Part shown: one piece after another, positions 6,804 to 25,428 of the stretch
How positions within the stretch are numbered: position 1 is the stretch's first letter
Layout of the letters: the number at the start of each line of letters is the position of its first letter
Assembly (NCBI GenBank): GCA_947165025.1
Contig: CAMUYQ010000003.1
Location: 54,747-118,746 of the forward strand
Length of the DNA: 64,000 nt
Direction of reading: 5' to 3'
Source of the DNA: an uncultured Lachnospiraceae bacterium
GTDB taxonomy: Bacteria; Bacillota; Clostridia; Lachnospirales; Lachnospiraceae
The notes under the pieces: model-generated
What the model saw: only the letters and a program-made list of their open reading frames with translations
Databases searched by the model: none
What the model was told of the DNA's origin: nothing
Position numbers and translations under genes: made by a program

Positions 6804-6804
6804 C
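6788..6804 (+). repeat. att core copy 1 (AGTCCCTTTTTCTGCAC), 3' end of tRNA-Leu
   Basis: The same 17-mer recurs at 34529-34545 and 46617-46633 (identical) and at 44761-44777 (one mismatch), all in direct orientation. Confidence 0.8.
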
Positions 6805-6982: not shown

Positions 6983-6994
6983 AGACATGCTTCT

Positions 6995-9257: not shown

Positions 9258-9327
9258 CGCAATTCACGACTGAAAAAGTGCGCTTCACGTCGAATCTATT
9301 GTTTATTTCTACAATTTCCCGATACTA
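9258..9327 (+). promoter_or_regulatory. Class-1 LytTR-type operator, copy 2, plus CCCGATAC box
   Basis: CGCAATTCACG (9258-9268) and TGCGCTTCACG (9279-9289), 21 bp apart; CGATA at 9320, 41 bp after the proximal repeat. Confidence 0.55.
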
Positions 9328-9360: not shown

Positions 9361-9429
9361 TGCAATTCACGTCGAAAAAAGTGCATTTCAAGTAATGTGG
9401 GTTTATTTGATGCTGTCCTATTACGATAG
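9361..9429 (+). promoter_or_regulatory. Class-1 LytTR-type operator, copy 3, plus TACGATAG box
   Basis: TGCAATTCACG (9361-9371) and TGCATTTCAAG (9382-9392), 21 bp apart; CGATA at 9424, 42 bp after the proximal repeat. Confidence 0.55.
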
Positions 9430-9574
9430 AACGATTAGATACAGCATCAAATGTGTCAAGTTCGCAGAACTTGACATGTAGCGTCGGCTCTTCGACGAAG
9501 TCGAATCAGGATGAGCCGACGTTCTCGGGTTGCAAGGAAACGGATTTCATAAGAAGAACAGGAGGTTCAGGAAG
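9406..9574 (+). promoter_or_regulatory. Inverted repeat around the putative -10, plus a multi-hairpin GGA-rich 5' leader for the first cluster gene
   Basis: 11-bp inverted repeat TTTGATGCTGT/ACAGCATCAAA (9406-9416 / 9441-9451). Hairpin 9454-9476 (10 bp). Nested hairpin 9482-9521 with unpaired TCAGGAT. Further GGA motifs run up to the SD AGGAGG. Confidence 0.5.
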
Positions 9575-10351
9575 ATGTCAACAATAAGACAAACAGCAGG
9601 CAGTAATTATTTTGATGAGACCTATGGCGGAGGTAGTTCAGGCTATTCCAATGATTTTCTGTCAGGGTTAAGTGTAAATACCAACAGTAATGGCGGCGGT
9701 TCATTCGATCTGGCGGATTATGCCATGATCAAGAACGGATCATACGGCAAGCTTATGAAGGCGTACTACGGACAGGAAAAAGCACAGAAGGCCGTAGAAT
9801 CCAAGGAGAGCACTTCCAAGCTTACACAGATGGCCGGTAATGCCGGAGGAATGGCAAATGCAGCAAAAGCCCTGATGGATGATTCATTATGGCAGAAGAA
9901 GACCATAACGGAGAAGGACGAAAAGACCGGAGAGGAAACGACTAAAGAAGATTATGACTGGAAGGCCATCACAAAGGCTGTTAAGGGATTCATCGAAAAC
10001 TATAACAACACAGTGGCTGGTGCAGGTGAATCCGATACAAAGGGTGTGTTGAGGAATGCTTCCTTCATGGTCAAGACAACGGCGGCATACAAGAAAACAC
10101 TTGAAAAGGCCGGCATCACGATCACAAGCGGAAATAAGCTCGAACTTAACGAGGAAGACCTTAAGAATGCGGACATTTCAACGCTTAAGACACTGTTTAC
10201 GGGTTACAACTCTTTTGCCGACAAGATGGCGACAAAGGGTAACACGATAGCAAACGAAGCTGCAAGTGCCGGCGGAACATATACGAGCAATGGAACGTAT
10301 TCCAAAGCACTGTCACAGATAGTATCGACCAAGATCGATACCAAAGAATAA
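9575..10351 (+). CDS. Short FliD (flagellar cap, HAP2)-like protein
   Basis: Start at ATG 9575 behind SD AGGAGG (the track ORF starts at an upstream TTG). By eye, FIENYNNTV, SLWQKK, GVLRNAS and LEKAGITITSGNKLELNEEDLKNADISTLKTLFTG resemble the Firmicute FliD motifs FVDxYN, LWEEKAK, GLLRND and GITT...GKLxxDExKL...LF. No signal peptide. Confidence 0.45.
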   Translation: MSTIRQTAGSNYFDETYGGGSSGYSNDFLSGLSVNTNSNGGGSFDLADYAMIKNGSYGKLMKAYYGQEKAQKAVESKESTSKLTQMAGNAGGMANAAKALMDDSLWQKKTITEKDEKTGEETTKEDYDWKAITKAVKGFIENYNNTVAGAGESDTKGVLRNASFMVKTTAAYKKTLEKAGITITSGNKLELNEEDLKNADISTLKTLFTGYNSFADKMATKGNTIANEAASAGGTYTSNGTYSKALSQIVSTKIDTKE

Positions 10352-10396
10352 CAAGGATGTTAACGATAATCACGGAAGATTAAGGAGGATTAGACC

Positions 10397-11044
10397 ATGT
10401 CAATGAATGTAGGAACAGATTATACGAATTACAAAACCGGATACACTAACACAGAAAATCAGAAAAAGGATGTCGATATTTCCGAAAAGACTGCAGATCA
10501 GGGCAAGACTGCGTATGTCAAGGAAGGTGTTGTTTATGATAAGTCCGGAGAAAAAGTAGACAACTCAACATATTCGATCAATAAGATGAGCGCAACTGAC
10601 AGGGCTGCGATCGTCGATCAGCTGAAGGAAGATGCAAGGCAGAGGGAACAGCAGCTTGTAAGCATCGTGCACAGAACAATAGCTGATCAGGCCGGAGCAT
10701 ATGGAAAAGCTACCGGAAATGATATCTGGACACTCCTTTCTGGCGGAAAGGTTACTGTAACTGCAGCCGAAAAGGCACAGGCACAGAGAGATATCAGTGA
10801 AGACGGGTATTACGGTGTTAAGCAGACATCCCAGAGATTGTTTGACTTTGCCTGTGCGCTTGCCGGGGATGACGTGGATAAGATGAAAGAAATGCAGAAG
10901 GCCATGGAGAAGGGTTTCAAGCTTGCTACAAAATCATGGGGTAAGGAACTTCCGGGCATATGCGGAGAAACATTTGATGCGGCTAACAAACTGTTTGAGG
11001 AATATTACAGGTCAAAAGATCCTGGAGCAGCATTGTCAGAATAG
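10397..11044 (+). CDS. Hypothetical protein (cluster gene 2)
   Basis: SD AAGGAGGA 6 nt upstream; conserved-looking C-terminal helical segment GYYGVKQTSQRLFDFACALAGDD...EKGFKLATKSWGKELPGI; no TM helix or signal peptide. Confidence 0.7.
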   Translation: MSMNVGTDYTNYKTGYTNTENQKKDVDISEKTADQGKTAYVKEGVVYDKSGEKVDNSTYSINKMSATDRAAIVDQLKEDARQREQQLVSIVHRTIADQAGAYGKATGNDIWTLLSGGKVTVTAAEKAQAQRDISEDGYYGVKQTSQRLFDFACALAGDDVDKMKEMQKAMEKGFKLATKSWGKELPGICGETFDAANKLFEEYYRSKDPGAALSE

Positions 11045-11148
11045 GTGGCGTAAAGTTTTCATAGAAAACTTTGCGGCACGTTGGCCACGACTTCCACGCA
11101 GTGGAATTGTTATGTCGTGGCTCTCAAGAGTAGGAGAGGACTAAAGCC

Positions 11149-11736
11149 ATGAACATAACCATGAAAGGTGCCGGCCTTCTCGGAATGGGTAATCCCGGTC
11201 TTAAAAGTACACAGGACCGTCTGGACAGAATGGTCAAAAGGGATAATAAAATAGCGTTCTTTGAGCAGCAGAAAGAGAATCTGAAGACTATGAAGACGGA
11301 TTCGCTTGAAGATATCTCAAGAAAACTGGAAATGCTTCATGGTTATGATGATCAGATCGCGCTTGCAAAGGTTGAGTTCAATAACAGTCAGGTTTTCCAT
11401 ATGCTTGATGAAGCAAGGGAACTTGGCGAGAAGATTGCTGAAGCAGCCGAGAAGAATGCTCCTAAGACTCCAGAAGAAAGACGCGAGGATATGATCGAGG
11501 AGGTTACAGGAGTAGATATGGACGGTGGAATACTTGGAGAAGTGATGGACGAACTCGAGGATATCACGGAAGAGATGACGGAGAAAGCCGCGGAAGAGCT
11601 TGAAGAAATGACAGAGGAGACTCTTTCGGAGCAGGATCTGAAACAGGCATTGTATCAGGAACCTTTAAGCACTGAGGATCCTGTGGAAGATGATCTGTTG
11701 CAGGATAAGTATAAACGGATCGATTACCGGGTATAG
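11149..11736 (+). CDS. Hypothetical acidic coiled-coil-like protein (cluster gene 3)
   Basis: Complete ORF with SD GGAGAGGA; E/D-rich C-terminal half; structured upstream intergenic region (hairpins within 11050-11130). Confidence 0.65.
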   Translation: MNITMKGAGLLGMGNPGLKSTQDRLDRMVKRDNKIAFFEQQKENLKTMKTDSLEDISRKLEMLHGYDDQIALAKVEFNNSQVFHMLDEARELGEKIAEAAEKNAPKTPEERREDMIEEVTGVDMDGGILGEVMDELEDITEEMTEKAAEELEEMTEETLSEQDLKQALYQEPLSTEDPVEDDLLQDKYKRIDYRV

Positions 11737-11778
11737 GAAACGGATTTCCTATCATAATAGTCAAAGGAGGACGAAATC

Positions 11779-12327
11779 ATGGCATTATCAGGTATCATGA
11801 CAACATCGCTGTTGTCGGCAAATAATTCAATGAAGATCGCAAGAGTACAACAGGGCGCCAAGAACCAGATGGACGGACACGCCGGTGTGCTTGATGCAGA
11901 GATAAAGCTAGACAGCGCCCGGGGCGGGGATGTTAAGAAAAAACAGGAAGAGCTTGAGGAGACAAAGAAAAAGGCTTCCGAACTTGAAGAATCCACTATG
12001 AATACGCTTTCGGCTACATCCGATGATCTGAAGAAGGCGGCTAAAGACGATCTTGAAGCCAGAAGGGCAGAGAAGGCTGAAGAGAAGAAGAAAGCCGAAA
12101 AAGCAGCAGAGAAAAAGAGGGTGGAGAAGAAGGCTACCGAAGAGAGGATCGAGAAGATCGGAGAAGCAGCAACATCTGAAACCGCAGAGATATCTGATGG
12201 TGATCATAGTGTATCGGTAGAGGGAACATTGTTTGAAGGCGCCACGATCAATGTCGTTGTTGACGGTGTAACTCCAAGCACAGGCGCAACCGGAACAATA
12301 GGCGTATCGATGGACGAAAAAGCCTGA
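11779..12327 (+). CDS. Hypothetical K/E-rich protein with weak flagellin-N-terminus-like start (cluster gene 4)
   Basis: SD AAGGAGGA. N-terminus SLLSANNSMKIARVQQG...DGHAGVLDAEIK loosely recalls flagellin LSANN...DDAAGLAISEKM; the rest is K/E-rich low complexity. Confidence 0.6.
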   Translation: MALSGIMTTSLLSANNSMKIARVQQGAKNQMDGHAGVLDAEIKLDSARGGDVKKKQEELEETKKKASELEESTMNTLSATSDDLKKAAKDDLEARRAEKAEEKKKAEKAAEKKRVEKKATEERIEKIGEAATSETAEISDGDHSVSVEGTLFEGATINVVVDGVTPSTGATGTIGVSMDEKA

Positions 12328-12341
12328 CAGAGGGTTATAAT

Positions 12342-12923
12342 ATGAAAATCACGGGATCATACAATCAATATGAGCTGAATAATATGGAATCAACAGGCAG
12401 TAAGCCCAAGGCAGAAAAGGAATACGCCAACTATCTGATGAAGAAGTATCCGTGCCTGTCTCCAGGAAAGAATTCTGTTGTATCTGTAACAAGTGGATTA
12501 TTGCGTAAAGCCATGTCCGATGAGAAGACCGGTGAGTGGCTTGAGAGAGAATTATCAAAGGCTCCCGATTATATCAAACAGGCTCAACAGTCTGCGATTG
12601 CCCATGGTTCAACCCTGAAGTTCTGTTCTATAGAGTTCGGAGAGGAGTATTCCACGATGTGTACGCTTACTGTAACAGACGGCGGAGGAACTGATCCGGA
12701 CATTGATGAATGGCTTGAGAAGGTTAAGAAGGAAAGGGCTGAGCGAAAAGCCGAGGAAAAGAAACAGGAAGAAGAACGCGCAGAGGTTCGCCGACAGGAA
12801 ACAGAAACATATAAGATGGAACTAAAGGGCAGGGATCTTGAAGATCTGACAAGACAGTTCGCCATGAATCTGACAACACAAGCCTCAACGCTTTCGAACG
12901 GTTCAATTGATATAAAAGCGTGA
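12342..12923 (+). CDS. Hypothetical protein, member of an in-cluster paralogue family (cluster gene 5)
   Basis: Shares the pattern VS[VIL][ST]xxG...M..D.....W ... [IF]xFGE with the products of 16684-17607 and 17619-18254. Confidence 0.65.
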   Translation: MKITGSYNQYELNNMESTGSKPKAEKEYANYLMKKYPCLSPGKNSVVSVTSGLLRKAMSDEKTGEWLERELSKAPDYIKQAQQSAIAHGSTLKFCSIEFGEEYSTMCTLTVTDGGGTDPDIDEWLEKVKKERAERKAEEKKQEEERAEVRRQETETYKMELKGRDLEDLTRQFAMNLTTQASTLSNGSIDIKA

Positions 12924-12934
12924 TCATTTCAATG

Positions 12935-13035
12935 TAAACAATTATCTTCAAAATGCCGATATATATTTAAGATAAGTGATAATGTCGCCTGATCAGAAAA
13001 GGAGTTCGGATCAGTATTGTCAAGGAGGATGACAC
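12935..13035 (+). promoter_or_regulatory. Sigma-D/sigma-28-type promoter plus hag-like leader (GGA hairpin + GGA-containing SD)
   Basis: TAAA (12935-12938), 16-nt spacer, GCCGATAT (12955-12962). Hairpin 12989-13014 presents AAGGAG in its loop. SD AAGGAGGA at 13023-13030. Confidence 0.6.
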
Positions 13036-13689
13036 ATGAGCGGGATAAATGCGGTTAATAACGGTAAATCCGGTGAATTTCTACAGGGAATTCAGACGAC
13101 AATAAAGGAAAAACTGAATAATGCTATTGAAGAAGGAGCATTCTCCAACGCATTTGATGAAGGAGTAGCTGCAACCCTTTCAATATCGTCATCCGGGATC
13201 GCTCAGGCTAGTCGGGCAGAAAGAGAAGATATCATTCGACAATCTATAGTCCAGCTGGATGGCGGGTATAGAAAGTTTAATCTTACAGATGAAGAAGCCT
13301 GTATTCTCAAGAGTTTCCGGTTGGAAGAATACTATGATATCCGGAATAGAATGAAGAATGAGGATATTAACGCCTATAATGATCTTTTAAAGTCTGAAGA
13401 GATCGCCGACAAGAACTCCGACCCGAGCGCAAAGTTTAAAGTATATTCAAAAGCATATAACTGGGCTTACGGGGACGTTTTTGACAGAATCCATAAGGAA
13501 AATCCGGAAGTTGATATTTATGTAAGATCACCGGGGACGGAGGAAAATCATAACTATCAAATGAGAAATAACAGAACCTCACTTATTATTTCCACGGATG
13601 AAATAAAACTCCTTCAGTCAAGAAATAACAACGATAAGAAAGCACAGGAAGAACTGTGGAATAGGATCCTGGAAAAGATCCGATCATGA
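13036..13689 (+). CDS. Hypothetical protein (cluster gene 6)
   Basis: Complete 217-aa ORF with a strong SD; no recognisable motif. Confidence 0.65.
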   Translation: MSGINAVNNGKSGEFLQGIQTTIKEKLNNAIEEGAFSNAFDEGVAATLSISSSGIAQASRAEREDIIRQSIVQLDGGYRKFNLTDEEACILKSFRLEEYYDIRNRMKNEDINAYNDLLKSEEIADKNSDPSAKFKVYSKAYNWAYGDVFDRIHKENPEVDIYVRSPGTEENHNYQMRNNRTSLIISTDEIKLLQSRNNNDKKAQEELWNRILEKIRS

Positions 13690-13707
13690 GTTTGATGAAA
13701 TGACAAG

Positions 13708-13787
13708 TCGGGATATATTAAAGGAAAGCATTAATATCGCTTGATCCGAAAAGGAGTTCGGATTCATATGATCAAGGAGGATATCAC
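13708..13787 (+). promoter_or_regulatory. Second copy of the hag-like leader (GGA hexaloop hairpin + SD)
   Basis: Hairpin ATCCGAA-AAGGAG-TTCGGAT (13744-13763). SD AAGGAGGA at 13774-13781. A degenerate TCGGGATAT box at 13708 has no convincing -35. Confidence 0.5.
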
Positions 13788-14756
13788 ATGAAGGTCAATA
13801 ACACATCCTTTTTTATGAATGATGGCGTATTTGGAACATCGAATACATCGGAGCGTTCAAACAATAATCCATCCAAATCATCCGGAATATCGATAAACGG
13901 CAGTTCTTTTGCCATGCAGAATGATCCCATTGCGGCCAAGCGGGAGGAAGCCCGTAAGAAAGCAATGAAGGTCATCGGGGATGCGTTTGCTAATGACCGG
14001 AAGATTGATGAAGACCTTGATGCAAGAAGCGAGCATATCCGAAAGCTGAAAACTGTTCAGAATGACGCAAATAAAGTGATCAACGAAATAGAATCAGACC
14101 GTGCTGCTCTTCGAGATGAGTATGGTATTGATACGGACAGTCAGGAAGAGAAAGATCTCCAGCTTCTTGAGAAGGAATTCAGGGCACGCCAAAAAGGTTC
14201 TGATGTTCAACTTACAAAGGAGGATATGGAGGAGATCGCTAAGATTAAGGCAAAGGGCCTTACGGAATATCAGAGCAGGTCGATGGAAATGCTTGATTAT
14301 GAGAAACCATATCTTGATGCAGCATATGAGGCTAAAGCCGGTATAGAAGAGGAAAATCTAACCATTGCAGCAATAAAGCGTGAACTTCCGAAGAATGACG
14401 CAATGTTGAAAGCCCAGGATAAAGCCGATGCCATAGAAGATGCTGCATCAAAAGAGATCATGGGGATGCTTGTCGATGAAGCGAAGGAACAAATCGACGA
14501 AGAGGCAAAGGAGGCCGAAGAAAAGGCCAAGGAGAAACAGGAGAAGGAAGAAGAACTCCAGGAGAAGATCGATGCCGCAAGGGAAAGACGTAAGGAAGAG
14601 GAAGAACTCACTGAAGACATCGTGGAATCTGCCCAGGATCTTAATGTTACAACAGCTAACATAAATGATGCACAGAAGGACATTAAGGATATGATGAACA
14701 AACTGGCACTCGTAGAAGAAGATATGAAGGGTGCCGCTGTGGATCAAAAATCATAA
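13788..14756 (+). CDS. Hypothetical coiled-coil-like protein (cluster gene 7)
   Basis: S/N-rich N-terminus, then a long K/E/D-rich helical-looking region; 322 aa. Confidence 0.65.
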   Translation: MKVNNTSFFMNDGVFGTSNTSERSNNNPSKSSGISINGSSFAMQNDPIAAKREEARKKAMKVIGDAFANDRKIDEDLDARSEHIRKLKTVQNDANKVINEIESDRAALRDEYGIDTDSQEEKDLQLLEKEFRARQKGSDVQLTKEDMEEIAKIKAKGLTEYQSRSMEMLDYEKPYLDAAYEAKAGIEEENLTIAAIKRELPKNDAMLKAQDKADAIEDAASKEIMGMLVDEAKEQIDEEAKEAEEKAKEKQEKEEELQEKIDAARERRKEEEELTEDIVESAQDLNVTTANINDAQKDIKDMMNKLALVEEDMKGAAVDQKS

Positions 14757-14793
14757 AGCATATTGATTGGTACTACCATTCAATATAGATCGG

Positions 14794-14824
14794 TCGGGTC
14801 ACGGAAAACGTGGCCCGATTTTTT
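14794..14824 (+). terminator. Intrinsic terminator ending the first transcription block of the cluster
   Basis: 10-bp stem TCGGGTCACG/CGTGGCCCGA (one G-U pair), loop GAAAA, followed by TTTTTT. Confidence 0.7.
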
Positions 14825-14829
14825 GTTTA

Positions 14830-15010
14830 TAGTCGTTTTATGTCATATGATAGTCGATTTTTGAAATATATATAAATATGGGATTAAATTGGTCGATAGA
14901 TATTTCAGATGATTTATTTCTATAAGTGTATAAAGAATTTGCTAAGGAAAGCACCCCAGAGGATCCATGGAGAGGATCGTAATTATAATGAGGTGCTTTT
15001 ACTTTTTTAA
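14830..15010 (+). promoter_or_regulatory. Regulatory cassette: class-2 LytTR-type operator + TAAA-N15-GTCGATAG promoter + GGA leader with terminator-like hairpin
   Basis: TAGTCGTTTTA (14830) and TAGTCGATTT (14851), 21 bp apart. TAAA at 14873-14876 and GTCGATAG at 14892-14899. GCTAAGGAAAGC at 14941. Hairpin AAAGCACC/GGTGCTTT (14948-14999) followed by a T-run. Confidence 0.55.
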
Positions 15011-15056
15011 CAGGGGGAGTAGTAAGCCGGCAAGGGGAAACCGGAAGAAAAAACTT

Positions 15057-15764
15057 ATGAAAATTTGGATCTGTGACGGAGAGAAAAGTGATATTGATGA
15101 GTTGAAGAGCCTTATCGATTGTTACAAAAAGAAAAAAGATATAGGGAATGTTGAAGTAAGAGTGTTTGGTGATGCTGCTGAACTTATACAGGAAATGATT
15201 GACGGTGATGCTGCAGATATTATTATTTTAGATGCAATGATAGCGGAAAATGGAACTGAGGATCTTCTTAAAAAAATACGAACTAGGAATTCAGATTCAA
15301 AAGTCATTCTGCTTATTTCGGAAATGAGACATGTACTTGACGGATATCAGATGAAAACAGATTGGATTCTTTTGAAAGAAAACCCCTCTGACAGATTTTT
15401 TGAATGTATGGATAGGCTGTGTTCAGACATCCGGGAGAAACGAAAAATCCTTTCCTTGTCGTGTGTAGAGGGAGATTATGTTTTCAGCCGATCGAAAATA
15501 CTGTTTATAGAGAGTGAAGGTCATCGCTGTACAATTCATGAATTGAATGGAGATTATCACATATACCGTCGCCTGGATGAACTCGAAGAGAGAATAGATT
15601 CGCCGTATTTTATACGAATTCATCAAAGCTATCTAGTCAATGTCAAATACATACAACGTATAAGCAATTACGAACTAACAATGGCAGACGGTTGTATCTT
15701 GCCAGTATCTAAGGCGAGATATAAACAGGTTCAGCGTGAATACGCAGAAAATAAAATGAATTGA
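15057..15764 (+). CDS. Orphan LytTR-family regulator with a divergent receiver-like N-terminal domain
   Basis: C-terminal LytTR signature FIRIHQSYLVNVKYI. The N-terminal REC-like fold has ICDGE in place of the DD/DE pocket, and IIILDAMI. Start moved to ATG 15057 because the track start 14967 lies inside the leader hairpin. Confidence 0.75.
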   Translation: MKIWICDGEKSDIDELKSLIDCYKKKKDIGNVEVRVFGDAAELIQEMIDGDAADIIILDAMIAENGTEDLLKKIRTRNSDSKVILLISEMRHVLDGYQMKTDWILLKENPSDRFFECMDRLCSDIREKRKILSLSCVEGDYVFSRSKILFIESEGHRCTIHELNGDYHIYRRLDELEERIDSPYFIRIHQSYLVNVKYIQRISNYELTMADGCILPVSKARYKQVQREYAENKMN

Positions 15765-15766
15765 TA

Positions 15767-15910
15767 TAGTCGTTTTATGCATTATATGATCGATTCAGGA
15801 CATTCCTATAATATGAATTGCGAAATGTGCCGATAACTATATCAGATAATTGTATAAGCTAAGGATAGCAGCTGTGGTCAAAGGAATGAACTTTGATGAC
15901 AGTCTTTTTT
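15767..15910 (+). promoter_or_regulatory. Regulatory cassette, copy 2 (class-2 operator, GCCGATAA box, GGA leader, terminator-like hairpin)
   Basis: TAGTCGTTTTA at 15767 and TGATCGATTCA at 15787. GCCGATAA at 15829-15836. GCTA-AGGA-TAGC at 15858-15869. Hairpin 15872-15902 with GGA at its apex, then TCTTTTTT. Confidence 0.55.
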
Positions 15911-15926
15911 ATAAGTGGGGGGTAGT

Positions 15927-16502
15927 ATGAACATTTTTTTTGAGAAACCTGAAGAACAGAAGATAACCAGCCAAAGGGAGCTGGTGGAGCATTTACTCAA
16001 TAATTCCGGTGATGTTGATGAGATGTCGGAGGAAAATCGCAGAGAGATGGACGCCCGGATAATGGCAAAGCTTAAATCCGGAAAAAAGCTTTCGCAAAAG
16101 GAACTGGATTATCTTAGGAGAACAAACCCCATACTTTATGCTCAGGCAATGAGAGTACAGAGAATGGCGGAGGCGCTCGAAGAACAGCTTAAGCATGCGA
16201 GAAGCAAGGAGGAAGTTAACCAGATCTTTACTACTGCGTTGTCCGGTATATCCAAGAATGATCCTGACCGTGAATACCTTGTGGCTTCTTTCAATCGTAT
16301 TTCTACAGAGTTTCGCAAATCTAAAATGTATAATAAGCTGCTGACCACCACTGAGGAAGCAAGGAAGAAAAAGAAACAGGTAGATCCGGATAAGGATCTG
16401 TTTAAGGAAGATAATGATGACAAAGACGGGTTTGATCTGAGCAGTTGGAGTCCTTTACGTGAGTTGTATGAACAGATGCCATCTTTTGTGGCCGGAGCGT
16501 GA
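15927..16502 (+). CDS. Hypothetical helical protein (cluster gene 9)
   Basis: ATG 15927 behind a GGGGGG SD (the track ORF starts at an upstream GTG inside the SD); K/E-rich, no motif recognised. Confidence 0.65.
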   Translation: MNIFFEKPEEQKITSQRELVEHLLNNSGDVDEMSEENRREMDARIMAKLKSGKKLSQKELDYLRRTNPILYAQAMRVQRMAEALEEQLKHARSKEEVNQIFTTALSGISKNDPDREYLVASFNRISTEFRKSKMYNKLLTTTEEARKKKKQVDPDKDLFKEDNDDKDGFDLSSWSPLRELYEQMPSFVAGA

Positions 16503-16518
16503 CGATTCTTTGCTATTC

Positions 16519-16660
16519 TTGATGATTTATATGGACGATAGTCGTTTCATGGCATTTATATAATACAGACTTATAACATGTCGATAATAGTATCAGACAA
16601 CTGAATAAGCAAGGGATTGCGGCTGTGTTCAAAGGATTGAATTTTGGAGACAGTTTTTTT
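16519..16660 (+). promoter_or_regulatory. Regulatory cassette, copy 3
   Basis: Half-sites TTGATGATTTA (16519, degenerate) and TAGTCGTTTCA (16539). GTCGATAA at 16580-16587. GCAA-GGGA-TTGC at 16609-16620, which covaries with GCTA...TAGC. Hairpin 16623-16653 followed by TTTTTTT. Confidence 0.55.
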
Positions 16661-16683
16661 ATACGAAATAAGGGGGATTAAGT

Positions 16684-17607
16684 ATGACAGGAACAGCAGT
16701 AGCATCATGTTTCAATTACAGCAGTTACGCAAGTTATCAGACTTCAAGTAAGAAGACGGGTGAGGTATTGTTTTCCGATAGTATTGATGTCAATAGTGAC
16801 AAGGTGAAAAAAGAGGAGTCCCAGAGGGGATCTGTTATGGAGGAATACTATGCAAGAAAGCCTCAGTACAAAGAAAGGGCAAAAGAACGAGTTGATGGCG
16901 GTTATGTTGTTCTAAAGTGTGCCGGGATTTCCACCGAGGACATGGAGAACATGTCCATGAATGAGTTTAAAGATGTGATGAGCAAGGTTATTGCCGGGAT
17001 TCCGCATCATGCCACAAGACCATATGATGAAGAAACGGTACTTATTTCCGAAGAAGGTTGGGAAAACATGAAGAAGGATCCTGATTATGCAGCATATGTG
17101 GTGGGTCTGCTTCAGGAAGACAGATCCTTTGCAAATCCGTTCTTTGCGCTGGGGGATAAAGGAAGTTATATTGTGCAGCATTTTGGCGCATCTCCGGAGG
17201 ACTATCATGGAGTCGGATTTAGCAAGATATACGGTGGTACTGCTGCGGGAGCACGTTCGATGTATAACTCGGCGAAGGCAGGAGGAATTGAGACGCGTGG
17301 CCCACAGGCGGATCTTCAGCCTCCGTCAGACTATAATCTTTGGGAAGAGAGAAGAAAAGCAAAGAGGCGTAAAAGAAAAGAGCAGCTTGATGAAGAAATC
17401 ATGTCTCAATATTATCAGAAGAAGCATTTGAACGATCTGTATGAAAAGAAACTTTACGAGAACAAGGAACTTGCACGATCTCGCAGTGTGGCTGAAATGA
17501 TAGGATCACGGAGCAATACATCACATGCGCCGAAGCTTTCTATGGCAAGCGGTACGGCGTTTTATGAAGCGGCGTTTATGACATCTGATATAACTGAAAT
17601 GTTTTAG
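16684..17607 (+). CDS. Hypothetical protein, paralogue family member (cluster gene 10)
   Basis: LISEEGWENMKKDPDYAAYVV ... IVQHFGASPED aligns by eye with the next gene and with 12342-12923; basic KRRKRK segment near the C-terminus. Confidence 0.65.
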   Translation: MTGTAVASCFNYSSYASYQTSSKKTGEVLFSDSIDVNSDKVKKEESQRGSVMEEYYARKPQYKERAKERVDGGYVVLKCAGISTEDMENMSMNEFKDVMSKVIAGIPHHATRPYDEETVLISEEGWENMKKDPDYAAYVVGLLQEDRSFANPFFALGDKGSYIVQHFGASPEDYHGVGFSKIYGGTAAGARSMYNSAKAGGIETRGPQADLQPPSDYNLWEERRKAKRRKRKEQLDEEIMSQYYQKKHLNDLYEKKLYENKELARSRSVAEMIGSRSNTSHAPKLSMASGTAFYEAAFMTSDITEMF

Positions 17608-17618
17608 GAGCATCTTGT

Positions 17619-18254
17619 ATGAACAATATGATCACAATCAGCAGTATGAGTCGCGCATTCCGACAGACACCGGTTCGCAGACCAAGTAAAAATGATGTAA
17701 GAGGAGCATCATTTGCGGACTGCGTTCAAAAAGAAGCGGATAAACAGAACATTCCGAATAACGAAACTATGCGTAGTGTAGACGAATATCGGACATACCT
17801 GAACGATAAGCTTCAGAATCTCTCATTTGATTCATCAAACAGAATGGACACCACGATGGTATCCTTATCGGATGCTGGTATTAATCGTATGATGAAGGAT
17901 CCCGAATATGAGAAATGGGTTATCTGTCAGGTTAGTTCCATGATTTCAACAGATGATCCGTTCAGCGGTATGGCAGGCGGAAAGTTTATCATAATGCGCT
18001 TTGGAGAGAGAGAATCAGATCTTAGTGTAACAATAGAGAGAGCCGGTTTTTCAAACGGACAGGACAGTATGATGCCAAAGACTCATAAAGATGAAGATGA
18101 GAATTTCTGGAACAGACGGCAAAACCGGCTTGAAGAGCAGATTGATGTAAGTGAGGAGATTCGTGAAAGAGAAGCGGAAGGTCTTTCAATAATGATCAAT
18201 CCGTTTTTGGATATAAGCGGGAAAAAAGCCATTGAGGGTAATACCGCCAACTGA
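17619..18254 (+). CDS. Hypothetical protein, paralogue family member (cluster gene 11)
   Basis: SLSDAGINRMMKDPEYEKWVI ... IIMRFGERESD; starts 11 nt after the upstream stop codon. Confidence 0.65.
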   Translation: MNNMITISSMSRAFRQTPVRRPSKNDVRGASFADCVQKEADKQNIPNNETMRSVDEYRTYLNDKLQNLSFDSSNRMDTTMVSLSDAGINRMMKDPEYEKWVICQVSSMISTDDPFSGMAGGKFIIMRFGERESDLSVTIERAGFSNGQDSMMPKTHKDEDENFWNRRQNRLEEQIDVSEEIREREAEGLSIMINPFLDISGKKAIEGNTAN

Positions 18255-18256
18255 AA

Positions 18257-18403
18257 TAGTCGTTTTATGTCATATTATAGTCAGTTTATGCAGAGGGTGT
18301 TTAGTGGTTATACAGACACGACGATAAAACTTTCAGATCAATATAAGAGCTAAGGATAGCGGCTGTGTTCAAAGGAGTGAACCTTGATCACGGTCGTTTT
18401 TTT
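18257..18403 (+). promoter_or_regulatory. Regulatory cassette, copy 4
   Basis: TAGTCGTTTTA (18257) and TAGTCAGTTTA (18278), 21 bp apart. GACGATAA at 18320-18327. GCTAAGGATAGC at 18349-18360. Imperfect hairpin 18359-18395 followed by TTTTTTT. Confidence 0.55.
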
Positions 18404-18488
18404 GTAATCAAAAATAAGATACCGCTCGGACCTTTCCGGAGAGCGGTGCGGCTCTGACTGACAGATGAGTCGCGGAAAGGGGGACAAT

Positions 18489-20678
18489 ATGTCATTTGCA
18501 GTACAAACAAGTTTTAATCAAACGTATCAGTATGGGAGCTTTGGCTCTAAATCTAATCGTGGAGAGGATTCTATAGGAAGAGAATTCATGGGAAGCGCTA
18601 CTTCACGAACCACTTCATCTGATAAGGGTGAAAATATCGGCGTTATGACGATTGGTAACATAGGGTATATTGCCAAATATGCGGACTCATCGACAGAAGA
18701 AGATCCTATCATCAAAGTCGGAGATTATGAGGTCAGGGTAAATGATGTTGATCCGCATAATGCTACTAAGGTAGAGATGTTTGCGCTGATGAGCTATATG
18801 GATGATAAAGGTCTCATCGAGAACACCGGCATGAAATCATTTGGAAAAATGACAGCGTATGGGGCACAGGCGGAATATAACGGATTTTGTAGTGATCTAT
18901 CCGATCCTGAGCTGGCATGGACAAAGAACAGAGACTGGACAGCGATACTGCAAAACGCAAAAGAAACATTTTTTGGTATTCCGCAGGCATATAATCAAGG
19001 GCTTAACTGCGAGAACATTGTTGCCGGACTTGAGCGTTGGGCAGAGACAAGGTGTGATAAAGGCGAGAATATAATTACAGAGGTATCCGGTGAGAGTGAA
19101 GTGTCAAGTGATATGGATGCCACATGTATTCCGGTTGTCGGCAAAGGATATGGCGATCCGGCCGCATACACCAGGTGTATTACAGCTAATATCAAGACCA
19201 AGGAAGCCTATGTACAGCAGAATTCCAACGGAGAAGTGATTTATTCGTACAGGGAGACGGAGCAGTCATTCAATATCATCATCAATTCTGACGGTAAGGA
19301 TAAAACATACACGATAACCGGTATTGACGAAAACGGCGAGGAGTTTGAAAGAGCGTTTGATCCATATGATCTGGATCCTAAAGATATGGATTATCCCGAG
19401 TTCGCTGCGATGTGCATGTACATCAGACAGACGGATGAAACAGCTGATCTGATAGCTAGCAGCTATTTTACGGATACAAGCTATTTCGACGGGATATTTG
19501 ACAGAGGTGATCGTGTCAGCCTGCTGGGACAGTATGCTGAAGAGTATGGTAATTCTGAGCCGTCCCTTGCAAGCCTTGCGAATAAGATATTTGAAGCTAT
19601 AAGTACATTTTTCGACAGAGCAATGAGGGGAAACGGATTCTCTGAAGAAGCATTCTCACTCCTGTTTGCGGACCTTGATGATATCGAGACGCAGGAAAAG
19701 ATCAGTGCGCTCAAAAACGGATATACCTATTCTGACAACACAACCGATCCGGTATCCGAAACAATTGTTTCAAAACACAATCAGTACACGGATCCTGATA
19801 CCGGTGAGATTGTTCCGGTGAATATCAGATATATCACAGCCTATACTGATGAGGGGATCTCCTGTAAGGAAATAAAAGATGAAGGGGGAAAAATATCACA
19901 GAGAGATTTATGGAGTCTATCTTATGATTCTCCGGACAGTTATGAAAAGGTTCAGGAGTTCTTAAAGAGTTTTTCGAAGGATCAGAATCTTACATTTGCT
20001 CCACAGGAGAAGTTTTGGAAGGATTTCATGAAGGATGATTTTGATATTGACGGATTCCGTGCATATTACGATTCCACCGATAACGGAAAGATAAATGTAG
20101 AGAAGGGATTACAGGAGGGCAAGAATCTGGGAGATCTCTTGACCGAGCCTTTTGCCGAATATATCAACAACACTCATTTTATCGGCAAGGTATTTACGGA
20201 GCAGGAAATGTGGGATAACTGGAATGCCCAAATAGAAGCAAACCAGAGGACTTTGGGCTTAAACTGTACAGGAGATATAGCATCCACAGATTCCAGGGAT
20301 AAGGTCCGTGAAATGAGAGAACAGGCATTTTTGGGGATTGGAAAGAATGCTTCGGAGAACGTAAAAAAAGCCTGGCTGGAGGCTGCAGATGAAATTGGAA
20401 TGGACGGACAGGGATTATCGGCTACCGGAACACTTGATCATATCCCGCAGTTTATGATACAGCGATTTATCCGCCAGTATAACGGATATGATCCGGATGA
20501 TGTTCTGGGGAGTACGGTAAGCTCGGCCATCCAGGCGGCTCAGGACGCTATTTATGCTCTTGACCATCCTCTCGAGCCTGATACAACAAGGAGTTCGAAA
20601 GTACTTGCGGCGAGGGAGAAAGAGAGAGCTTTCTATGAGCGTTTTATAGAAAAACTCATGGGAATGAGAGCGCTCTAA
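18489..20678 (+). CDS. Large hypothetical protein (729 aa from ATG 18489; cluster gene 12)
   Basis: ATG 18489 behind SD AAAGGGGGA (the track ORF starts 24 nt upstream); no TM helix, signal peptide or catalytic motif recognised. Confidence 0.65.
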   Translation: MSFAVQTSFNQTYQYGSFGSKSNRGEDSIGREFMGSATSRTTSSDKGENIGVMTIGNIGYIAKYADSSTEEDPIIKVGDYEVRVNDVDPHNATKVEMFALMSYMDDKGLIENTGMKSFGKMTAYGAQAEYNGFCSDLSDPELAWTKNRDWTAILQNAKETFFGIPQAYNQGLNCENIVAGLERWAETRCDKGENIITEVSGESEVSSDMDATCIPVVGKGYGDPAAYTRCITANIKTKEAYVQQNSNGEVIYSYRETEQSFNIIINSDGKDKTYTITGIDENGEEFERAFDPYDLDPKDMDYPEFAAMCMYIRQTDETADLIASSYFTDTSYFDGIFDRGDRVSLLGQYAEEYGNSEPSLASLANKIFEAISTFFDRAMRGNGFSEEAFSLLFADLDDIETQEKISALKNGYTYSDNTTDPVSETIVSKHNQYTDPDTGEIVPVNIRYITAYTDEGISCKEIKDEGGKISQRDLWSLSYDSPDSYEKVQEFLKSFSKDQNLTFAPQEKFWKDFMKDDFDIDGFRAYYDSTDNGKINVEKGLQEGKNLGDLLTEPFAEYINNTHFIGKVFTEQEMWDNWNAQIEANQRTLGLNCTGDIASTDSRDKVREMREQAFLGIGKNASENVKKAWLEAADEIGMDGQGLSATGTLDHIPQFMIQRFIRQYNGYDPDDVLGSTVSSAIQAAQDAIYALDHPLEPDTTRSSKVLAAREKERAFYERFIEKLMGMRAL

Positions 20679-20684
20679 AACTTC

Positions 20685-20766
20685 GCCAATATATTCAAGT
20701 CGAAATTTAATAAGAGTTATGGAAAGTGGCTGTGTTCAAAGGATTGAACTTTGGACACAGCTTTTT
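20685..20766 (+). promoter_or_regulatory. Partial regulatory cassette, copy 5 (GCCAATAT box, GGA-apex terminator-like hairpin)
   Basis: GCCAATAT at 20685-20692 with no TAAA at the proper spacing and no clear LytTR repeats. Hairpin GCTGTGTTCAAAGG/CTTTGGACACAGC (20729-20761) followed by TTTTT. Confidence 0.4.
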
Positions 20767-20821
20767 CGTACCAAACAAAGCATAAACAGACAGGAAAACA
20801 AGGACTGGAGGGTAGTGATTA

Positions 20822-22135
20822 ATGAAAATTGCAGACAGTACAGTAAACATGATGTCGGGGAGAAACTATACTCAGACCGGGATGAAGAACGGGGTGGCCG
20901 GTTATGAAAGCAGCTTCACGGGAATGATCAACAGATATAACACCCATAGGGATAATGCTCTTGCAAAGGACACTTATCAATCCGGCAAGGATAATGGTGG
21001 GATGGGTTCTTACAATATGGATGATATCGGGTATTTCAAGGGACTCGGAAAAATCACATCTGGAAGCCTATTTGGAGCGGGAGCAGGTGCGTCAGCTTTT
21101 CAAAACAACACTCTGGCCGCGATGTTTAAGAGATTCGCATCTTTTGGAATGATAGGCGGCGCGGCTATTGGCGGATACTCCTCGAGTATGGTCACGTATT
21201 CCGAAACCGAAGAGACAGGGTTTCATGCGTGCGGTAAGGCATGTACAGAGGACGGCCGGACGATCGATTTTAATGTAAATATCCTGATGAGCAGGAGCTA
21301 TATGGAATATATGAACGTAAGGATCCCGACTATGGCTGATGCCCTGTTTGATCCGCTTATTGTCAATATAGGATCTGATACAGCGGATGTGCGGGATCAG
21401 ACTTTTAAGTTTGATCTTGATGCCGACGGGTGTGAGGATGAAATATCCATGCTTGGTAAGTGCTCGGGATTTCTTGCTTTGGATAAAGACGGAAACGGAA
21501 AAATCGATGACGGCAATGAATTGTTCGGAACAAAGAGCGGTGACGGATTCGGTGAGCTTCGGGAATATGACAGTGATGGTAATGGATGGATCGATGAGAA
21601 CGACGAGATATTCTCAAAACTTAAGGTATGGTGCAAGGATGAGAACGGTAATGACGTACTCATGGATCTGAAGGAGGCAGACATCGGAGCTATATATCTG
21701 GGAGAACAGCGGACGGAGTTTACACTTGGCGGGGCAGACGGTTACAGAGACGGAGTGATCAGATCCACAGGGGTATTTCTTCGCGAGAGTGGAGGCGCAG
21801 GTACAATACAGCATGTGGACTTGTCCATGAAACAAAACGGTCTGGGTACAAAGGTCAGCGGTGATGATACAGTTATGGATGTAAGTACATCCGACAACCG
21901 AAATCAGAGCAATGCCACCAGGAGACAGGAAGAAAGACGGCGGCAGGAAGCAAAGGCAAGAAGGAGAAAAGCTGATGATAAGGCAGCTGCGGATGCCATG
22001 TACAGAAGACAGATGGAAAATAGGAAATACATGAATAAGCTTCAGGAGAGGCGATTTATGGAGAGAAAGGAATACCATGAGGAACTGAGCGAGGAGCAGA
22101 TGGAGAAACTGCTTGAAGATCAGGAAGCAGTATAA
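20822..22135 (+). CDS. Hypothetical protein with EF-hand-like DxDxDG calcium-binding repeats and a basic C-terminal tail (cluster gene 13)
   Basis: DLDADGCEDEI, LDKDGNGKIDDGNELFG, YDSDGNGWIDENDEIF, CKDENGNDVL; C-terminal RRQEERRRQEAKARRRK; no signal peptide. Confidence 0.7.
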   Translation: MKIADSTVNMMSGRNYTQTGMKNGVAGYESSFTGMINRYNTHRDNALAKDTYQSGKDNGGMGSYNMDDIGYFKGLGKITSGSLFGAGAGASAFQNNTLAAMFKRFASFGMIGGAAIGGYSSSMVTYSETEETGFHACGKACTEDGRTIDFNVNILMSRSYMEYMNVRIPTMADALFDPLIVNIGSDTADVRDQTFKFDLDADGCEDEISMLGKCSGFLALDKDGNGKIDDGNELFGTKSGDGFGELREYDSDGNGWIDENDEIFSKLKVWCKDENGNDVLMDLKEADIGAIYLGEQRTEFTLGGADGYRDGVIRSTGVFLRESGGAGTIQHVDLSMKQNGLGTKVSGDDTVMDVSTSDNRNQSNATRRQEERRRQEAKARRRKADDKAAADAMYRRQMENRKYMNKLQERRFMERKEYHEELSEEQMEKLLEDQEAV

Positions 22136-22231: not shown

Positions 22232-24625
22232 TCAATGCCCTATATCGTCAAACAAATCATATACCGGTGTGCGTGTAGGCTCCGGATCGTAATCGTAGTC
22301 ATAATCATAATCAGTACGGTCATCGGCTGAGTGCGAGGCAGTATAATCCCTTTCGGTTATTCCTGCATCAGATCTCGAGAGCGTCTCCTCTTTAACCGGA
22401 GTCTTCGGTTCAAGAGCCTTAAGAGCTGCTATATACGGTTCTTGCGTAAAGCTTCGATCCATTGCAAGTTTAGAGTCACGGTCGATCATTTTGATATTTC
22501 GATATTCGCCTGTAACGCAGTTCAAGTTAACGGAAGCTGCCTTCAACAAGCCTTCCAGAATACGGAGCTGATGCAGATAATCATCGTAATTGTTCTCTGA
22601 CAGCCCAAGATTAAGAGCCTTCTGCTTCAGCTCTTTGTATCTTAGGATCTGCATTGTTGTTTCCATATCGACAGACTGAATTATCTCACTAAGAGCATTT
22701 GTTTTTTCTTCCTCAGTCAGTTGGGGGTCCTGCTCGCTGTCTTTGTTGTGAAGATGTCTGTATTTTGCTTCGAGATAACGTTCCTCTTTATTTTTCTCAT
22801 ATTCAGCATAGGATATAAGAACTTCCGGCCTTTGAAGGTCCTTGTTACTTAAGAATCTGATGATCTGCTCGGCTTCAGCAAACGTAAGCTCATTATACGG
22901 ACAGGTGAGTTTCCATCTGTCAGAGTTAGTGTTTAACAAGTTGTAAAGATCGACTTTCTGCTTGCTTGTCATAGGCTCCAGCAGTGCATGCTCATGGCGT
23001 ATTGTCGACTTATCGGGGTATGTGAGCAGTCGATCGATCTGAGAAAGATCAAAGCCTTTAAGTACACGCTCTAAGCTTTGAAGACCCCTGATCACAGATT
23101 CTTTTTCCTGATAGCACTTTACCGAACCCTCCAGTTTATCGATATACTTCTTAAGATTACTCCAGGTCTTGCCTATTTCCCGGAATCGACTTCTGATATC
23201 AGCATGAGTGTATAAACCAAGAAGGTTTGCCGCATACATGGATCGCTGCATCCTCAGGATCTTCTTGTCTATATCAGAGATCACAGGATGAGATCTGAGG
23301 AGTTCCTCGCGATCTTTATCTTTAAATAGGGACATGATTGTATCAATGATCAGCTCTTTGAAGTATTTAAGAACTTTGATGGCATAAAGAAATACTATCT
23401 CCAGATTCGATCTCCGGCAGCCGTTTTCATTGTATCTGCTTATATTCATGTTGAATTCGTTTGTGCGTGGATCTTTTGATATATAATCGATGCGATCGAT
23501 CCTGTACTGCTGTTCAGCCCTCTTTTCCTCCTGAAGAACCTGTCTTTCAGGAATCGGTTTGCCGCCATTATCAAATCCTATGCCGGAATCCCAGCCCATT
23601 CGCTGGCATATGGCTTTTCTCATATATTTTTCACCAAGTGCTATATCCCTTACCTGGAACGGCAAAATGCTGTCTTTCATATGAAGATCATGGCATATGA
23701 ACAGAACATGATCAGGTGTCTGCGAAATGTCATATCTGCTGATCCCGGTTTTCGGATCCGTGTATTGCTCCGACATGAACTCCATAAATCCCTGCCAGCT
23801 TGTAACACCGTGTTCCTTGCATTCCGCTAGAGCGCTATCAATATCTTGTCTGATGCGGTCTTTATTGCTCGTACCGTCATGACTCTTTGCTCTTACATAT
23901 TCTTCAGCCACATCCGGGACATCCGGCGTATGATTTTTATGATCGATATCCGCATCAAGCAGTATGGGAAGATCATGTGCGAGGCTTATCTCGTCATTGA
24001 GATTGCGGAGCTTACGTCGTAGTGCTTTGTTCATGCATATTTTATGAGTGCCGTCCATAGAGAATGCACAGACAACGATATGGTTATGGACATGATCCGT
24101 ATTCATGTGTGTTGATACAACACATTGAAATCCGGGAAAAGCTCTTTTGGCATATTCAACCCCGATCCTGTGAACAAGAAGCGGATCCGGAGGTGTCCCG
24201 CCATGTTCTTTACCGGGAAATGACTGTATAAAGTGTTCAGCATCTATCGGTTTCTTTTCGACGGTAATGCGTCTGCCAGTCTTCTTGTCTGTATATGTAG
24301 CGTACTTGGCGCTTCCTCTGCGCCTTCTGCCATTACCGTTTTCTTCATACTTATACTTGGACGCTGCAAAGTCAACAGAGGCCATTTCTTCGATACAGTT
24401 GATGCCGGTAACAAGGACTGTCTTATCACCGTCAAGTTCCATAACCGTCTTTTCGAGATTTTTAGCATACTTAAGAACAACATCGAAGTTGTCATCTTCG
24501 ACTACGGTGTCCTTCGCTTCATATGACTTATCCGTCAAAGTGTTCTTCGTTTCATCGTTAACGTAGTTGATGCATGAAGCAACGCCTTTGGAACTATGTA
24601 TTGGGATGTTTTTAAGTATAGCCAT
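22232..24625 (-). CDS. Relaxase/mobilisation nuclease-domain protein (MobA/VirD2 superfamily) with a long C-terminal extension
   Basis: N-terminal relaxase region with His triad HMNTDHVHNHIVV; 797 aa; convergent with the unknown-function cluster. Confidence 0.8.
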   Translation of the reverse strand: MAILKNIPIHSSKGVASCINYVNDETKNTLTDKSYEAKDTVVEDDNFDVVLKYAKNLEKTVMELDGDKTVLVTGINCIEEMASVDFAASKYKYEENGNGRRRRGSAKYATYTDKKTGRRITVEKKPIDAEHFIQSFPGKEHGGTPPDPLLVHRIGVEYAKRAFPGFQCVVSTHMNTDHVHNHIVVCAFSMDGTHKICMNKALRRKLRNLNDEISLAHDLPILLDADIDHKNHTPDVPDVAEEYVRAKSHDGTSNKDRIRQDIDSALAECKEHGVTSWQGFMEFMSEQYTDPKTGISRYDISQTPDHVLFICHDLHMKDSILPFQVRDIALGEKYMRKAICQRMGWDSGIGFDNGGKPIPERQVLQEEKRAEQQYRIDRIDYISKDPRTNEFNMNISRYNENGCRRSNLEIVFLYAIKVLKYFKELIIDTIMSLFKDKDREELLRSHPVISDIDKKILRMQRSMYAANLLGLYTHADIRSRFREIGKTWSNLKKYIDKLEGSVKCYQEKESVIRGLQSLERVLKGFDLSQIDRLLTYPDKSTIRHEHALLEPMTSKQKVDLYNLLNTNSDRWKLTCPYNELTFAEAEQIIRFLSNKDLQRPEVLISYAEYEKNKEERYLEAKYRHLHNKDSEQDPQLTEEEKTNALSEIIQSVDMETTMQILRYKELKQKALNLGLSENNYDDYLHQLRILEGLLKAASVNLNCVTGEYRNIKMIDRDSKLAMDRSFTQEPYIAALKALEPKTPVKEETLSRSDAGITERDYTASHSADDRTDYDYDYDYDPEPTRTPVYDLFDDIGH

Positions 24626-25410: not shown

Positions 25411-25428
25411 GAAAGGACGGCGATTAAT

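Follow-up and report, generated by a model that had tools for sequence, protein, structure and literature searches.

Tandem TAGTCG repeats as predicted operators of a LytTR regulator family with a kinase-less member in a Lachnospiraceae gene cluster, and a structured leader RNA downstream of them

Introduction

Which protein is served by the tandem direct repeats around a solitary LytTR regulator gene, and does that regulator form the second tier of a cascade? This question is raised by a gene cluster in a stretch of 64,000 nucleotides (the window) from an uncultured Lachnospiraceae bacterium (assembly GCA_947165025.1, contig CAMUYQ010000003.1, positions 54,747 to 118,746). The cluster contains a complete LytTR two-component system with repeats of its own (class 1) and, 3′ of the operon behind it, an orphan LytTR regulator gene, RR2 (15057-15764, + strand, 235 amino acids), which is preceded by a second kind of repeat, TAGTCGTTT (class 2). 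The adjacent kinase-less regulator very probably binds at the TAGTCGTTT repeats, a prediction based on the recurrence of the same repeats upstream of genes for related regulators across dozens of Lachnospiraceae genomes. All statements on the host genome cover the window, and the relatives were sampled as 83 fetched loci, comprising 80 genome loci and three metagenome contigs, which are referred to by L numbers.

Class-2 repeats in the window

The 11-mer TAGTCGTTTYA occurs exactly four times in the 64 kb, at 14830, 15767, 16539 and 18257. All four copies are intergenic and on the + strand, and each is paired with a weaker half-site at 20-21 bp. The chance expectation is 0.04 copies per window, and four copies were found in none of 100 shuffles. 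Operator A (14830-14861, + strand), located before the orphan gene, consists of TAGTCGTTTTA, 10 nt and TAGTCGATTTT (at 14851) in a 21-bp phase; the site is identical in the three closest genomes (L004-L006). The same phase is found in operator D (18257-18288, + strand; TAGTCGTTTTA / TAGTCAGTTTA at 18278) before g18489. A sequence-only reading of this DNA had placed these two pairs correctly in position and phase, and had been right that class 2 differs in sequence from class 1. The remaining two operators, also on the + strand, have the 20-bp phase that this reading assigned to them: operator B (15767-15797; TAGTCGTTTTA / TGATCGATTCA at 15787) precedes g15927 and operator C (16519-16549; TTGATGATTTA at 16519 / TAGTCGTTTCA at 16539) precedes g16684. 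A degenerate distal half, proposed for both, exists in operator C alone, whereas in operator B it is the proximal half that is degenerate. When tandem pairs with at most 3 mismatches in 18 positions are counted, the window holds 4, as compared with 0.08 in Markov simulations. Three of these lie in the cluster, and the fourth, at 35400 on the − strand, is probably a chance match; the pair at 16519/16539, with 4 mismatches, falls narrowly beyond the cut.

Operators and regulators across relatives

The orphan has few relatives: near-identical copies in rumen Lachnospiraceae assemblies, followed by a clade at 29-43% identity from Butyrivibrio, Lachnospira, Roseburia, Agathobacter, Blautia and others. 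In this clade, T(A/G)GTCG(T/A)TT tandem repeats with a 20-21-bp phase are located 80-230 bp 5′ of the regulator's own start codon. A pair with at most 4 mismatches in 18 positions lies between -250 and -30 of the regulator start in 59 of the 75 non-orthologous loci (79%), as compared with 1.3% of 1500 control windows. Altogether, the 1.25 Mb of the 83 loci contain 81 tandem pairs, all but one of them (80/81) on the strand of the regulator. In the clade at 35-43% identity the arrangement is strikingly regular, with half-sites at -102 and -81. A second class-2 pair lies past the kinase gene in L001, L009, L013, L020/L021, L023, L035, L041, L046, L048, L056 and L060, and in many loci this pair precedes the next gene. 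Pairs upstream of the regulator gene and again after the kinase gene are arranged in the classical manner of LytTR systems that regulate themselves. Because motif, phase, orientation and distance are kept when protein identity has dropped to 30-40% and the flanking DNA can no longer be aligned, the repeats carry the signature of a binding site. These figures are mismatch counts with controls; a weight matrix of 32 bp, derived from 14 sites, was dropped as overfitted.

The class-1 regulator behaves in the same manner with a motif of its own. Its homologues, at 28-40% identity, have (A/C)C(C/G)(A/T)TTCA(C/T) repeats with a 21-bp phase before their own genes. In Butyrivibrio, Lachnospira and Pseudobutyrivibrio, several loci harbor both systems in one cluster, and there each regulator gene is preceded solely by its own operator class. 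The LytTR domain of the orphan shares 41% identity with that of a paralogous class-2 regulator and 24% with that of the class-1 regulator. It is well supported by these comparisons that each operator class would belong to its own LytTR family, class 2 being that of the orphan; the separate operator class suggested for this regulator is borne out by the repeats in front of its relatives. A testable DNA motif is now assigned to a large, unstudied LytTR family of gut and rumen Lachnospiraceae (Roseburia, Agathobacter, Butyrivibrio, Lachnospira), and one gene cluster maintains beside it a second LytTR family whose motif is different.

The orphan regulator

The LytTR domain of the orphan is intact (Pfam PF04397, E = 4.1e-21, 75.5 bits against a cut-off of 22.6; a PDB sequence match to the LytTR domain 3d6w). 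The receiver, at 21.5 bits, remains under the Pfam Response_reg cut-off of 30.2. Its acidic pocket reads D7-G8-E9 (in the segment ICDGE), as compared with D-R-E in L004-L006 and D-D-D in the relatives; the segment LDAMIAENGTE stands in place of LDINMxxMDG, and the position of the conserved Thr is occupied by Ile. The phospho-acceptor D54 and K107 are kept. The variation between Gly and Arg among orthologues suggests that the Asp13-equivalent is no longer constrained. Loss of the metal-ligand Asp and of the Thr from a receiver speaks against normal phosphorylation control. In the relatives at 29-43% identity, the regulator gene is followed by a gene for a GHKL kinase, and the family is therefore normally a complete two-component system. 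Unlike in these relatives, no kinase gene flanks the orphan in the window or in L004-L006. Both the orphan status and the divergent receiver with its ICDGE segment, as noted earlier from the sequence, are thereby upheld. The gene constitutes a natural example of a regulator that is devoid of its kinase and of part of its phosphorylation pocket and yet retains its operator.

Public gene calls start the orphan at upstream ATGs, giving 265, 258 or 288 amino acids (window 14967-15056). Alignment with relatives places the start at 15057 (235 amino acids), and the extra N-terminal residues of the public calls are probably leader RNA rather than protein.

Core promoter

At all four sites of the window, a G(C/T/A)CGATA(A/G) block follows the start of the proximal repeat at a distance of 43-44 nt: GTCGATAG at 14892-14899, which lies 43 nt past that start and has TAAA 15 nt upstream, GCCGATAA at 15829-15836, GTCGATAA at 16580-16587 and GACGATAA at 18320-18327 (all on the + strand). 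CGA(T/C)A recurs at this distance in 56 of 77 distinct sites, and the class-1 sites have a similar block at equal distance (9422 and 7056-7063). We take the 8-mers of the window to correspond to the -10 element of sigma-D (sigma-28) promoters; the four blocks match this element (GCCGATAA/T) at 6-8 of 8 positions. Candidates for a -35 element are TAAA-N15 at the 14830 site and TAAT-N15/16 at 15767 and 16539, with none at 18257, and the T at -7 that is needed by sigma-A is missing in all four promoters. The flagellin promoter of L018 (3358-3385), TAAA-N16-GCCGATAT, has a -10 of the same 8-mer type. Distant autoregulatory promoters have the sigma-A-like sequence TTGATA-N18-TATAAT with CCGA just upstream, and the promoters that follow the kinase gene in the clade at 30% identity read GGTTGGAAAA-N13-GCCGACAG. 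A TATAAT about 41 nt after the distal repeat was considered as the -10 element and rejected: the family-wide block lies about 22 nt further downstream, and the TATAAT occupies the -35 position.

When the window was searched by tblastn for csrA, fliW, flagellin and sigD, the sole match was the housekeeping sigma factor beside dnaG; flagellar genes are absent from the window. In two unrelated genomes (L014, 4378-5476, and L001, 224-1452), a sigma-factor gene and a second gene are located directly 5′ of the LytTR systems. The L014 pair resembles an extracytoplasmic function (ECF)-type sigma factor (160 amino acids) and a membrane anti-sigma-like protein (208 amino acids), while the first gene of L001 gives merely a weak Sigma70_r2 match. 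The window contains no counterpart of this gene pair, and g15927, which was considered to be possibly related to the sigma-like gene next to the L001 cluster, shows no similarity to it.

A conserved leader RNA

Each of the three downstream-gene promoters is followed, ahead of the ribosome-binding site, by a conserved element of about 63 nt. The earlier sequence-only reading overlooked this structured leader. Copies are located on the + strand at 15853-15915, 16604-16666, 18344-18406 and 20711-20773, the last of them between g18489 and g20822 with no operator upstream. Each begins with a hairpin, P1, followed by an 8-nt linker, a 12-13-bp stem, P2, with a UCAA(A/G/U)GGAnUGA apex, and a U-run. 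In the first copy, P1 is GCUA[AGGA]UAGC, or alternatively GCU[AAGGAU]AGC, and the terminator-like P2 bears a UCAAAGGAAUGA apex; in the second, P1 reads GCAA[GGGA]UUGC, a compensatory change relative to the first. The apex of P2 is able to refold as UCA[ANGGAN]UGA, in competition with the upper part of the terminator-like stem.

A covariance model retrieved 36 copies from the window and related loci (e.g., L021:12081-12143, L013:2323-2389 and L003:2426-2488). The sense-strand copies that were inspected all lie just 5′ of cluster genes, and three weak matches are reverse complements of the palindromic P2 stem. Within an alignment fitted to the model, pairing is kept in 92.5% of the cells as compared with 76.8% in shuffles, and 11 of 16 pairs have changed on both sides. 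Independent alignment of 15 divergent copies with MAFFT and folding with RNAalifold returned the same helices, 8 of 14 pairs being compensatory. Rfam has no match for the leaders at gathering or E-value thresholds. The leader is a previously undescribed RNA that combines a terminator-like stem with two hairpin loops of the sequence ANGGAN, and it provides a handle on an uncharacterized gene cluster that is widespread among Lachnospiraceae. The orphan's own leader (14941-15009, + strand) is arranged analogously: a T-run lies behind a terminator-like hairpin (14948-14999) whose 5′ arm is overlapped by a hairpin GCU[AAGGAA]AGC (14941-14952). It gives no match to the covariance model, and its fold is no better than that of shuffles (z = -0.35).

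Two types of RNA target resemble the leader. ANTAR targets (PMC3369931) have two mini-hairpins with stems of 3 bp or more, whose hexaloops carry A1 and G4, and a linker of 5-12 nt; the second hairpin competes with an intrinsic terminator, as it does here. The loops of the window leaders agree with this description (GCU[AAGGAU]AGC, an 8-nt linker and UCA[AAGGAN]UGA). In contrast to ANTAR targets, the second hairpin of the leader arises from the apex of the terminator rather than from its 5′ base, so that the lower 6-7 bp are still free; moreover, G3 and A5 are invariant too, and some relatives have an AGGA tetraloop. No ANTAR-domain protein was found among the open reading frames of the window that were scanned. 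In the control of flagellin mRNA by CsrA and FliW, hairpin loops of the 5′ leader expose GGA motifs, two of which are spaced about 20-25 nt apart (PMC6529632, PMC4894983). In the leader described here, GGA is invariant both in the loop of P1 and at the apex of P2, with a spacing of about 21-25 nt, in keeping with at least two loop GGA motifs within ~10-60 nt, and ribosome-binding sites (GGGGG or GGAGG) follow 10-90 nt downstream. A GUGC[AAGGAA]GCGC hairpin is present in the leader of a flagellin gene in the related locus L018. Unlike the CsrA-FliW flagellin paradigm, the leader described here closes in a terminator-like hairpin, and neither csrA nor fliW occurs in the window or the fetched loci. 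The overlap at the apex, the invariant G3 and A5 and the tetraloops fit CsrA-type GGA-loop sites better than ANTAR targets. With low confidence, the leader may be regarded as a checkpoint after initiation that is read by an RNA-binding protein.

The gene cluster and its cassettes

The cluster begins 3′ of a tRNA-Leu(CAG) gene (6720-6804). The class-1 two-component system comprises a regulator (7100-7852) and a GHKL kinase (7849-9255), both on the + strand, with class-1 operators at 6996-7028, 9259-9291 and 9362-9394 (+ strand). It is followed by a class-1 operon of seven genes (9530-14756), none of them with a solid family assignment. Within this operon, TAAA-N16-GCCGATAT (12935-12962) precedes g13036, and a 79-nt repeat, 80% identical between its copies, is found ahead of g13036 (12961-13039) and g13788 (13713-13791); it contains a CUGAUC...AAGGAG...GAUCAG hairpin immediately 5′ of the ribosome-binding site.

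Five further genes without family assignment lie 3′ of the orphan and reach to 22135, all on the + strand. The first target unit of class 2 is g15927 (15927-16502, 191 amino acids). It is followed by g16684 (16684-17607, 307 amino acids) and g17619 (17619-18254, 211 amino acids), which form one transcription unit, by g18489 (18489-20678, 729 amino acids, family PF27009) and by g20822 (20822-22135, 437 amino acids). The latter has its own leader copy and no operator, and is probably transcribed by read-through from the 18257 promoter. The products of g16684 and g17619 are distant paralogues (24% identity over ~94 residues), and Roseburia-type loci have a single homologue directly 3′ of the kinase gene. 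By eye, tandem D-x-D-G-N-G-x-I-D segments in the g20822 product look like the calcium-binding repeats of secreted proteins; there is no Pfam match.

Gene units are missing from some of the closest genomes: L005 is devoid of g16684-g17619, and L006 of g16684-g17619 and g18489. At the L005 junction (11425-11560), the left side corresponds to window 16485-16540 and the right side to window 18257 onward (18257-18335 compared), which places the crossover inside the operator half-site ATAGTCGTTT. Because of this position, the repeated regulatory modules double as recombination substrates at which gene units are gained and lost. In many Lachnospiraceae, one or both regulator families occur together with homologues of the cluster genes, and the g18489 family (PF27009) is the most widespread target of the regulator clade.

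The target products have no signal peptides, and their polar N-termini are rich in Ser, Thr, Asn and Tyr. With Pfam, the cluster proteins gave only sub-threshold FliD_C and FapA matches, plus DUF6033, and searches of ten of them against NCBIfam, PHROGs and PADLOC returned nothing meaningful. PDB sequence searches with g9530 and g18489 were without a match. An AlphaFold2 model of g18489 from 45 homologues was poor (predicted local distance difference test, pLDDT, 62; predicted template modeling score, pTM, 0.31), and a PDB fold search with it gave nothing at E <= 0.001. A literature search for DUF6033, PF27009 and LytTR in Lachnospiraceae found nothing relevant. A link of the targets to flagellar export is speculation, prompted by the -10 block, by GGA in the hairpin loops and by host genera that are motile. 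A broader picture, doubtful as a whole, would be that of a mobile, cassette-built regulon for proteins exported independently of Sec, possibly substrates of flagellar export, in motile Lachnospiraceae. A LytTR activator and a sigma-D-type promoter would be combined with a dual-ANGGAN-loop attenuator read by a CsrA-like or other RNA-binding protein, and the orphan would serve as a kinase-free memory or bistability element on operators shared with a signal-responsive paralogue.

Past the cluster (22232-28270), the window encodes a relaxase on the − strand, an actin-like segregation protein and a tyrosine integrase, and TGGGGGAAAA tandem repeats (6938-6983) are found on its tRNA-Leu side. The cluster may reside on an integrated mobilizable element; att-type repeats of at least 12 nt between the tRNA and integrase sides were not found. 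A distant DNA search of a plasmid collection with the entire region gave no match. Genes for cyclic-nucleotide signaling surround the element (2654-6586, 45056-46516 and 52708-55913) and encode GGDEF-EAL, PAS-GGDEF, double cNMP-binding and PAS-adenylate/guanylate cyclase proteins.

A model and its alternatives

The explanation that we consider probable as a whole is that the class-2 repeats are the operator of one LytTR family with the orphan as a member, and that the cluster holds two insulated regulons. Two regulator molecules would occupy two TAGTCG(T/A)TTT half-sites, 20-21 bp apart. Bound at a fixed position, ~11 bp 5′ of the -35 region, the regulator would probably activate four promoters, namely its own (positive autoregulation) and those of g15927, g16684-g17619 and g18489 with g20822. 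The class-1 system (7100-9255) would act likewise through class-1 repeats on itself and on the operon at 9530-14756, the two regulons being insulated from each other. The orphan would stem from a kinase-bearing family and have lost the kinase, the second Asp of the acidic pocket and the conserved Thr; in view of these losses, its activity would probably depend on its amount or on a partner, and not on ordinary phosphorylation. Finally, the leader 3′ of each downstream-gene promoter would act as a second checkpoint, after initiation, by means of an RNA-binding factor. The sequence-only reading had likewise let the orphan control itself and the later units. Class-2 sites do precede all of them; the units are not all single genes, as had been assumed, since g15927 is followed by the pair g16684-g17619 and by g18489 with g20822.

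Several points weigh against this explanation. Activation is considered more probable than repression from the position of the sites alone. Two half-sites, the proximal one at 15787 and the distal one at 16519, are weak and match at 7/11 positions. The blocks of the window are sigma-D-like and the distant autoregulatory promoters sigma-A-like, and one of the two covariation counts for the leader comes from the alignment fitted to its own model. A further point concerns the closest genomes. RUG13397, with L004 and L021 on a single contig, and SRR873597_bin.12, with L006 and L020, contain the orphan together with a complete paralogous pair of regulator and kinase, so that two of the three closest genomes hold such a pair with near-identical operators; the paralogous regulator is 38% identical to the orphan. 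The class-2 sites of the window could consequently be served mainly or jointly by a paralogue encoded outside it.

In its full form, this alternative states that a complete paralogous system elsewhere in the genome is the main driver of the class-2 promoters, with the orphan as a co-regulator or competitor, e.g., a phosphorylation-independent brake or primer. We regard it as possible, if tentative. The orphans that coexist with the full pair are 95-96% identical to that of the window, and the operators in RUG13397 and SRR873597_bin.12, TAGTCGTTTTATGTCATTTTATAGTCGTTTCA, are almost identical to those of the window, including the spacer ATGTCAT. In L021, the full pair (9898-11993) is located exactly between the homologues of g17619 and g18489, with a class-2 site on either side. 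The window, on the other hand, has a single operator only between g17619 and g18489, and contains neither a second regulator of the family nor a second kinase. Its genome may have lost the paralogous pair from between these two genes, or may hold the pair elsewhere. Such an arrangement would resemble that of PlnC and PlnD in Lactobacillus plantarum, two regulators that share one operator.

In the two-tier cascade that had been proposed for this cluster, the class-1 system would switch on the orphan, by read-through or by phosphorylation through its kinase, and the orphan would then act on the later units. Its gene lies immediately 3′ of the class-1 operon, Asp54 as the phospho-acceptor and Lys107 are retained, and both regulator families occur together in the same cluster type in several genera. 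Read-through, however, would have to pass a strong intrinsic-terminator-like hairpin (14792-14820, + strand; 12 pairs, 7 of them G-C, and a T-run), which closes the class-1 operon and separates it from the orphan promoter. This promoter has only a class-2 site, and a class-1 site is found neither before the orphan nor before members of its family in any locus examined; no cross-class site was seen in these loci. Gly or Arg at the Asp13-equivalent and the loss of the Thr speak against efficient phosphotransfer, and other genomes (e.g., L017 and L019) carry the two systems in reverse order. The cascade finds no support in these comparisons and appears quite unlikely; two insulated regulons in one cluster constitute the better-supported picture.

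It is highly improbable that the repeats are recombination or cassette-boundary sequences, or relics of duplicated modules, without operator function. The entire intergenic module is repeated, including operator, -10-like block and leader, and the crossover by which L005 lost g16684-g17619 lies within ATAGTCGTTT; against this view, half-site, phase, orientation and gene distance are kept between distant relatives amid DNA that cannot be aligned, and recombination at the repeats is a side effect. Least likely of all is that one protein binds both operator classes, which share the 21-bp phase and the distance to the CGATA block but have unrelated half-sites (TTTCACGT and TAGTCGTTT), follow each its own protein family across genera, also where a genome has both, and would have to be recognized by LytTR domains that are merely 24% identical.

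Comparison with known systems

With regard to its receiver, the orphan is reminiscent of atypical or orphan response regulators whose receiver pockets are degenerate and which work without being phosphorylated, e.g., HP1043, ChxR and the actinomycete GlnR; they likewise lack a partner kinase and have lost the metal-binding Asp and the Thr while keeping the fold and the output domain. In contrast to the orphan, these regulators are of the OmpR/NarL type rather than LytTR proteins; moreover, the orphan still has the phospho-acceptor Asp and the Lys, so that independence from phosphorylation is not established by the resemblance.

As a predicted operator-regulator system, the family with its class-2 repeats is closest to regulators of the AgrA, ComE, BlpR and PlnC/PlnD type. 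It shares with them the architecture of receiver and LytTR domain, two direct repeats of ~9-11 bp that are located ~21 bp apart just 5′ of the -35 region, control of the own gene, and the use of the same repeat pair on several operons. It differs from the AgrA/ComE class in its half-site, TAGTCGTTT, which is not among the described ones, in a member without cognate kinase and with a degenerate acidic pocket, in the lack of recognized peptide-pheromone genes, and in a core promoter with a CGATA block instead of a plain TATAAT. The mechanism itself, LytTR direct repeats combined with autoregulation, belongs to the textbook, and the surprise resides in the surroundings rather than in the operator. 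The less ordinary features are a regulator without a kinase, whose receiver is degenerate and whose operators are probably shared with a complete paralogue, a core promoter of the CGATA type and a new structured leader RNA.

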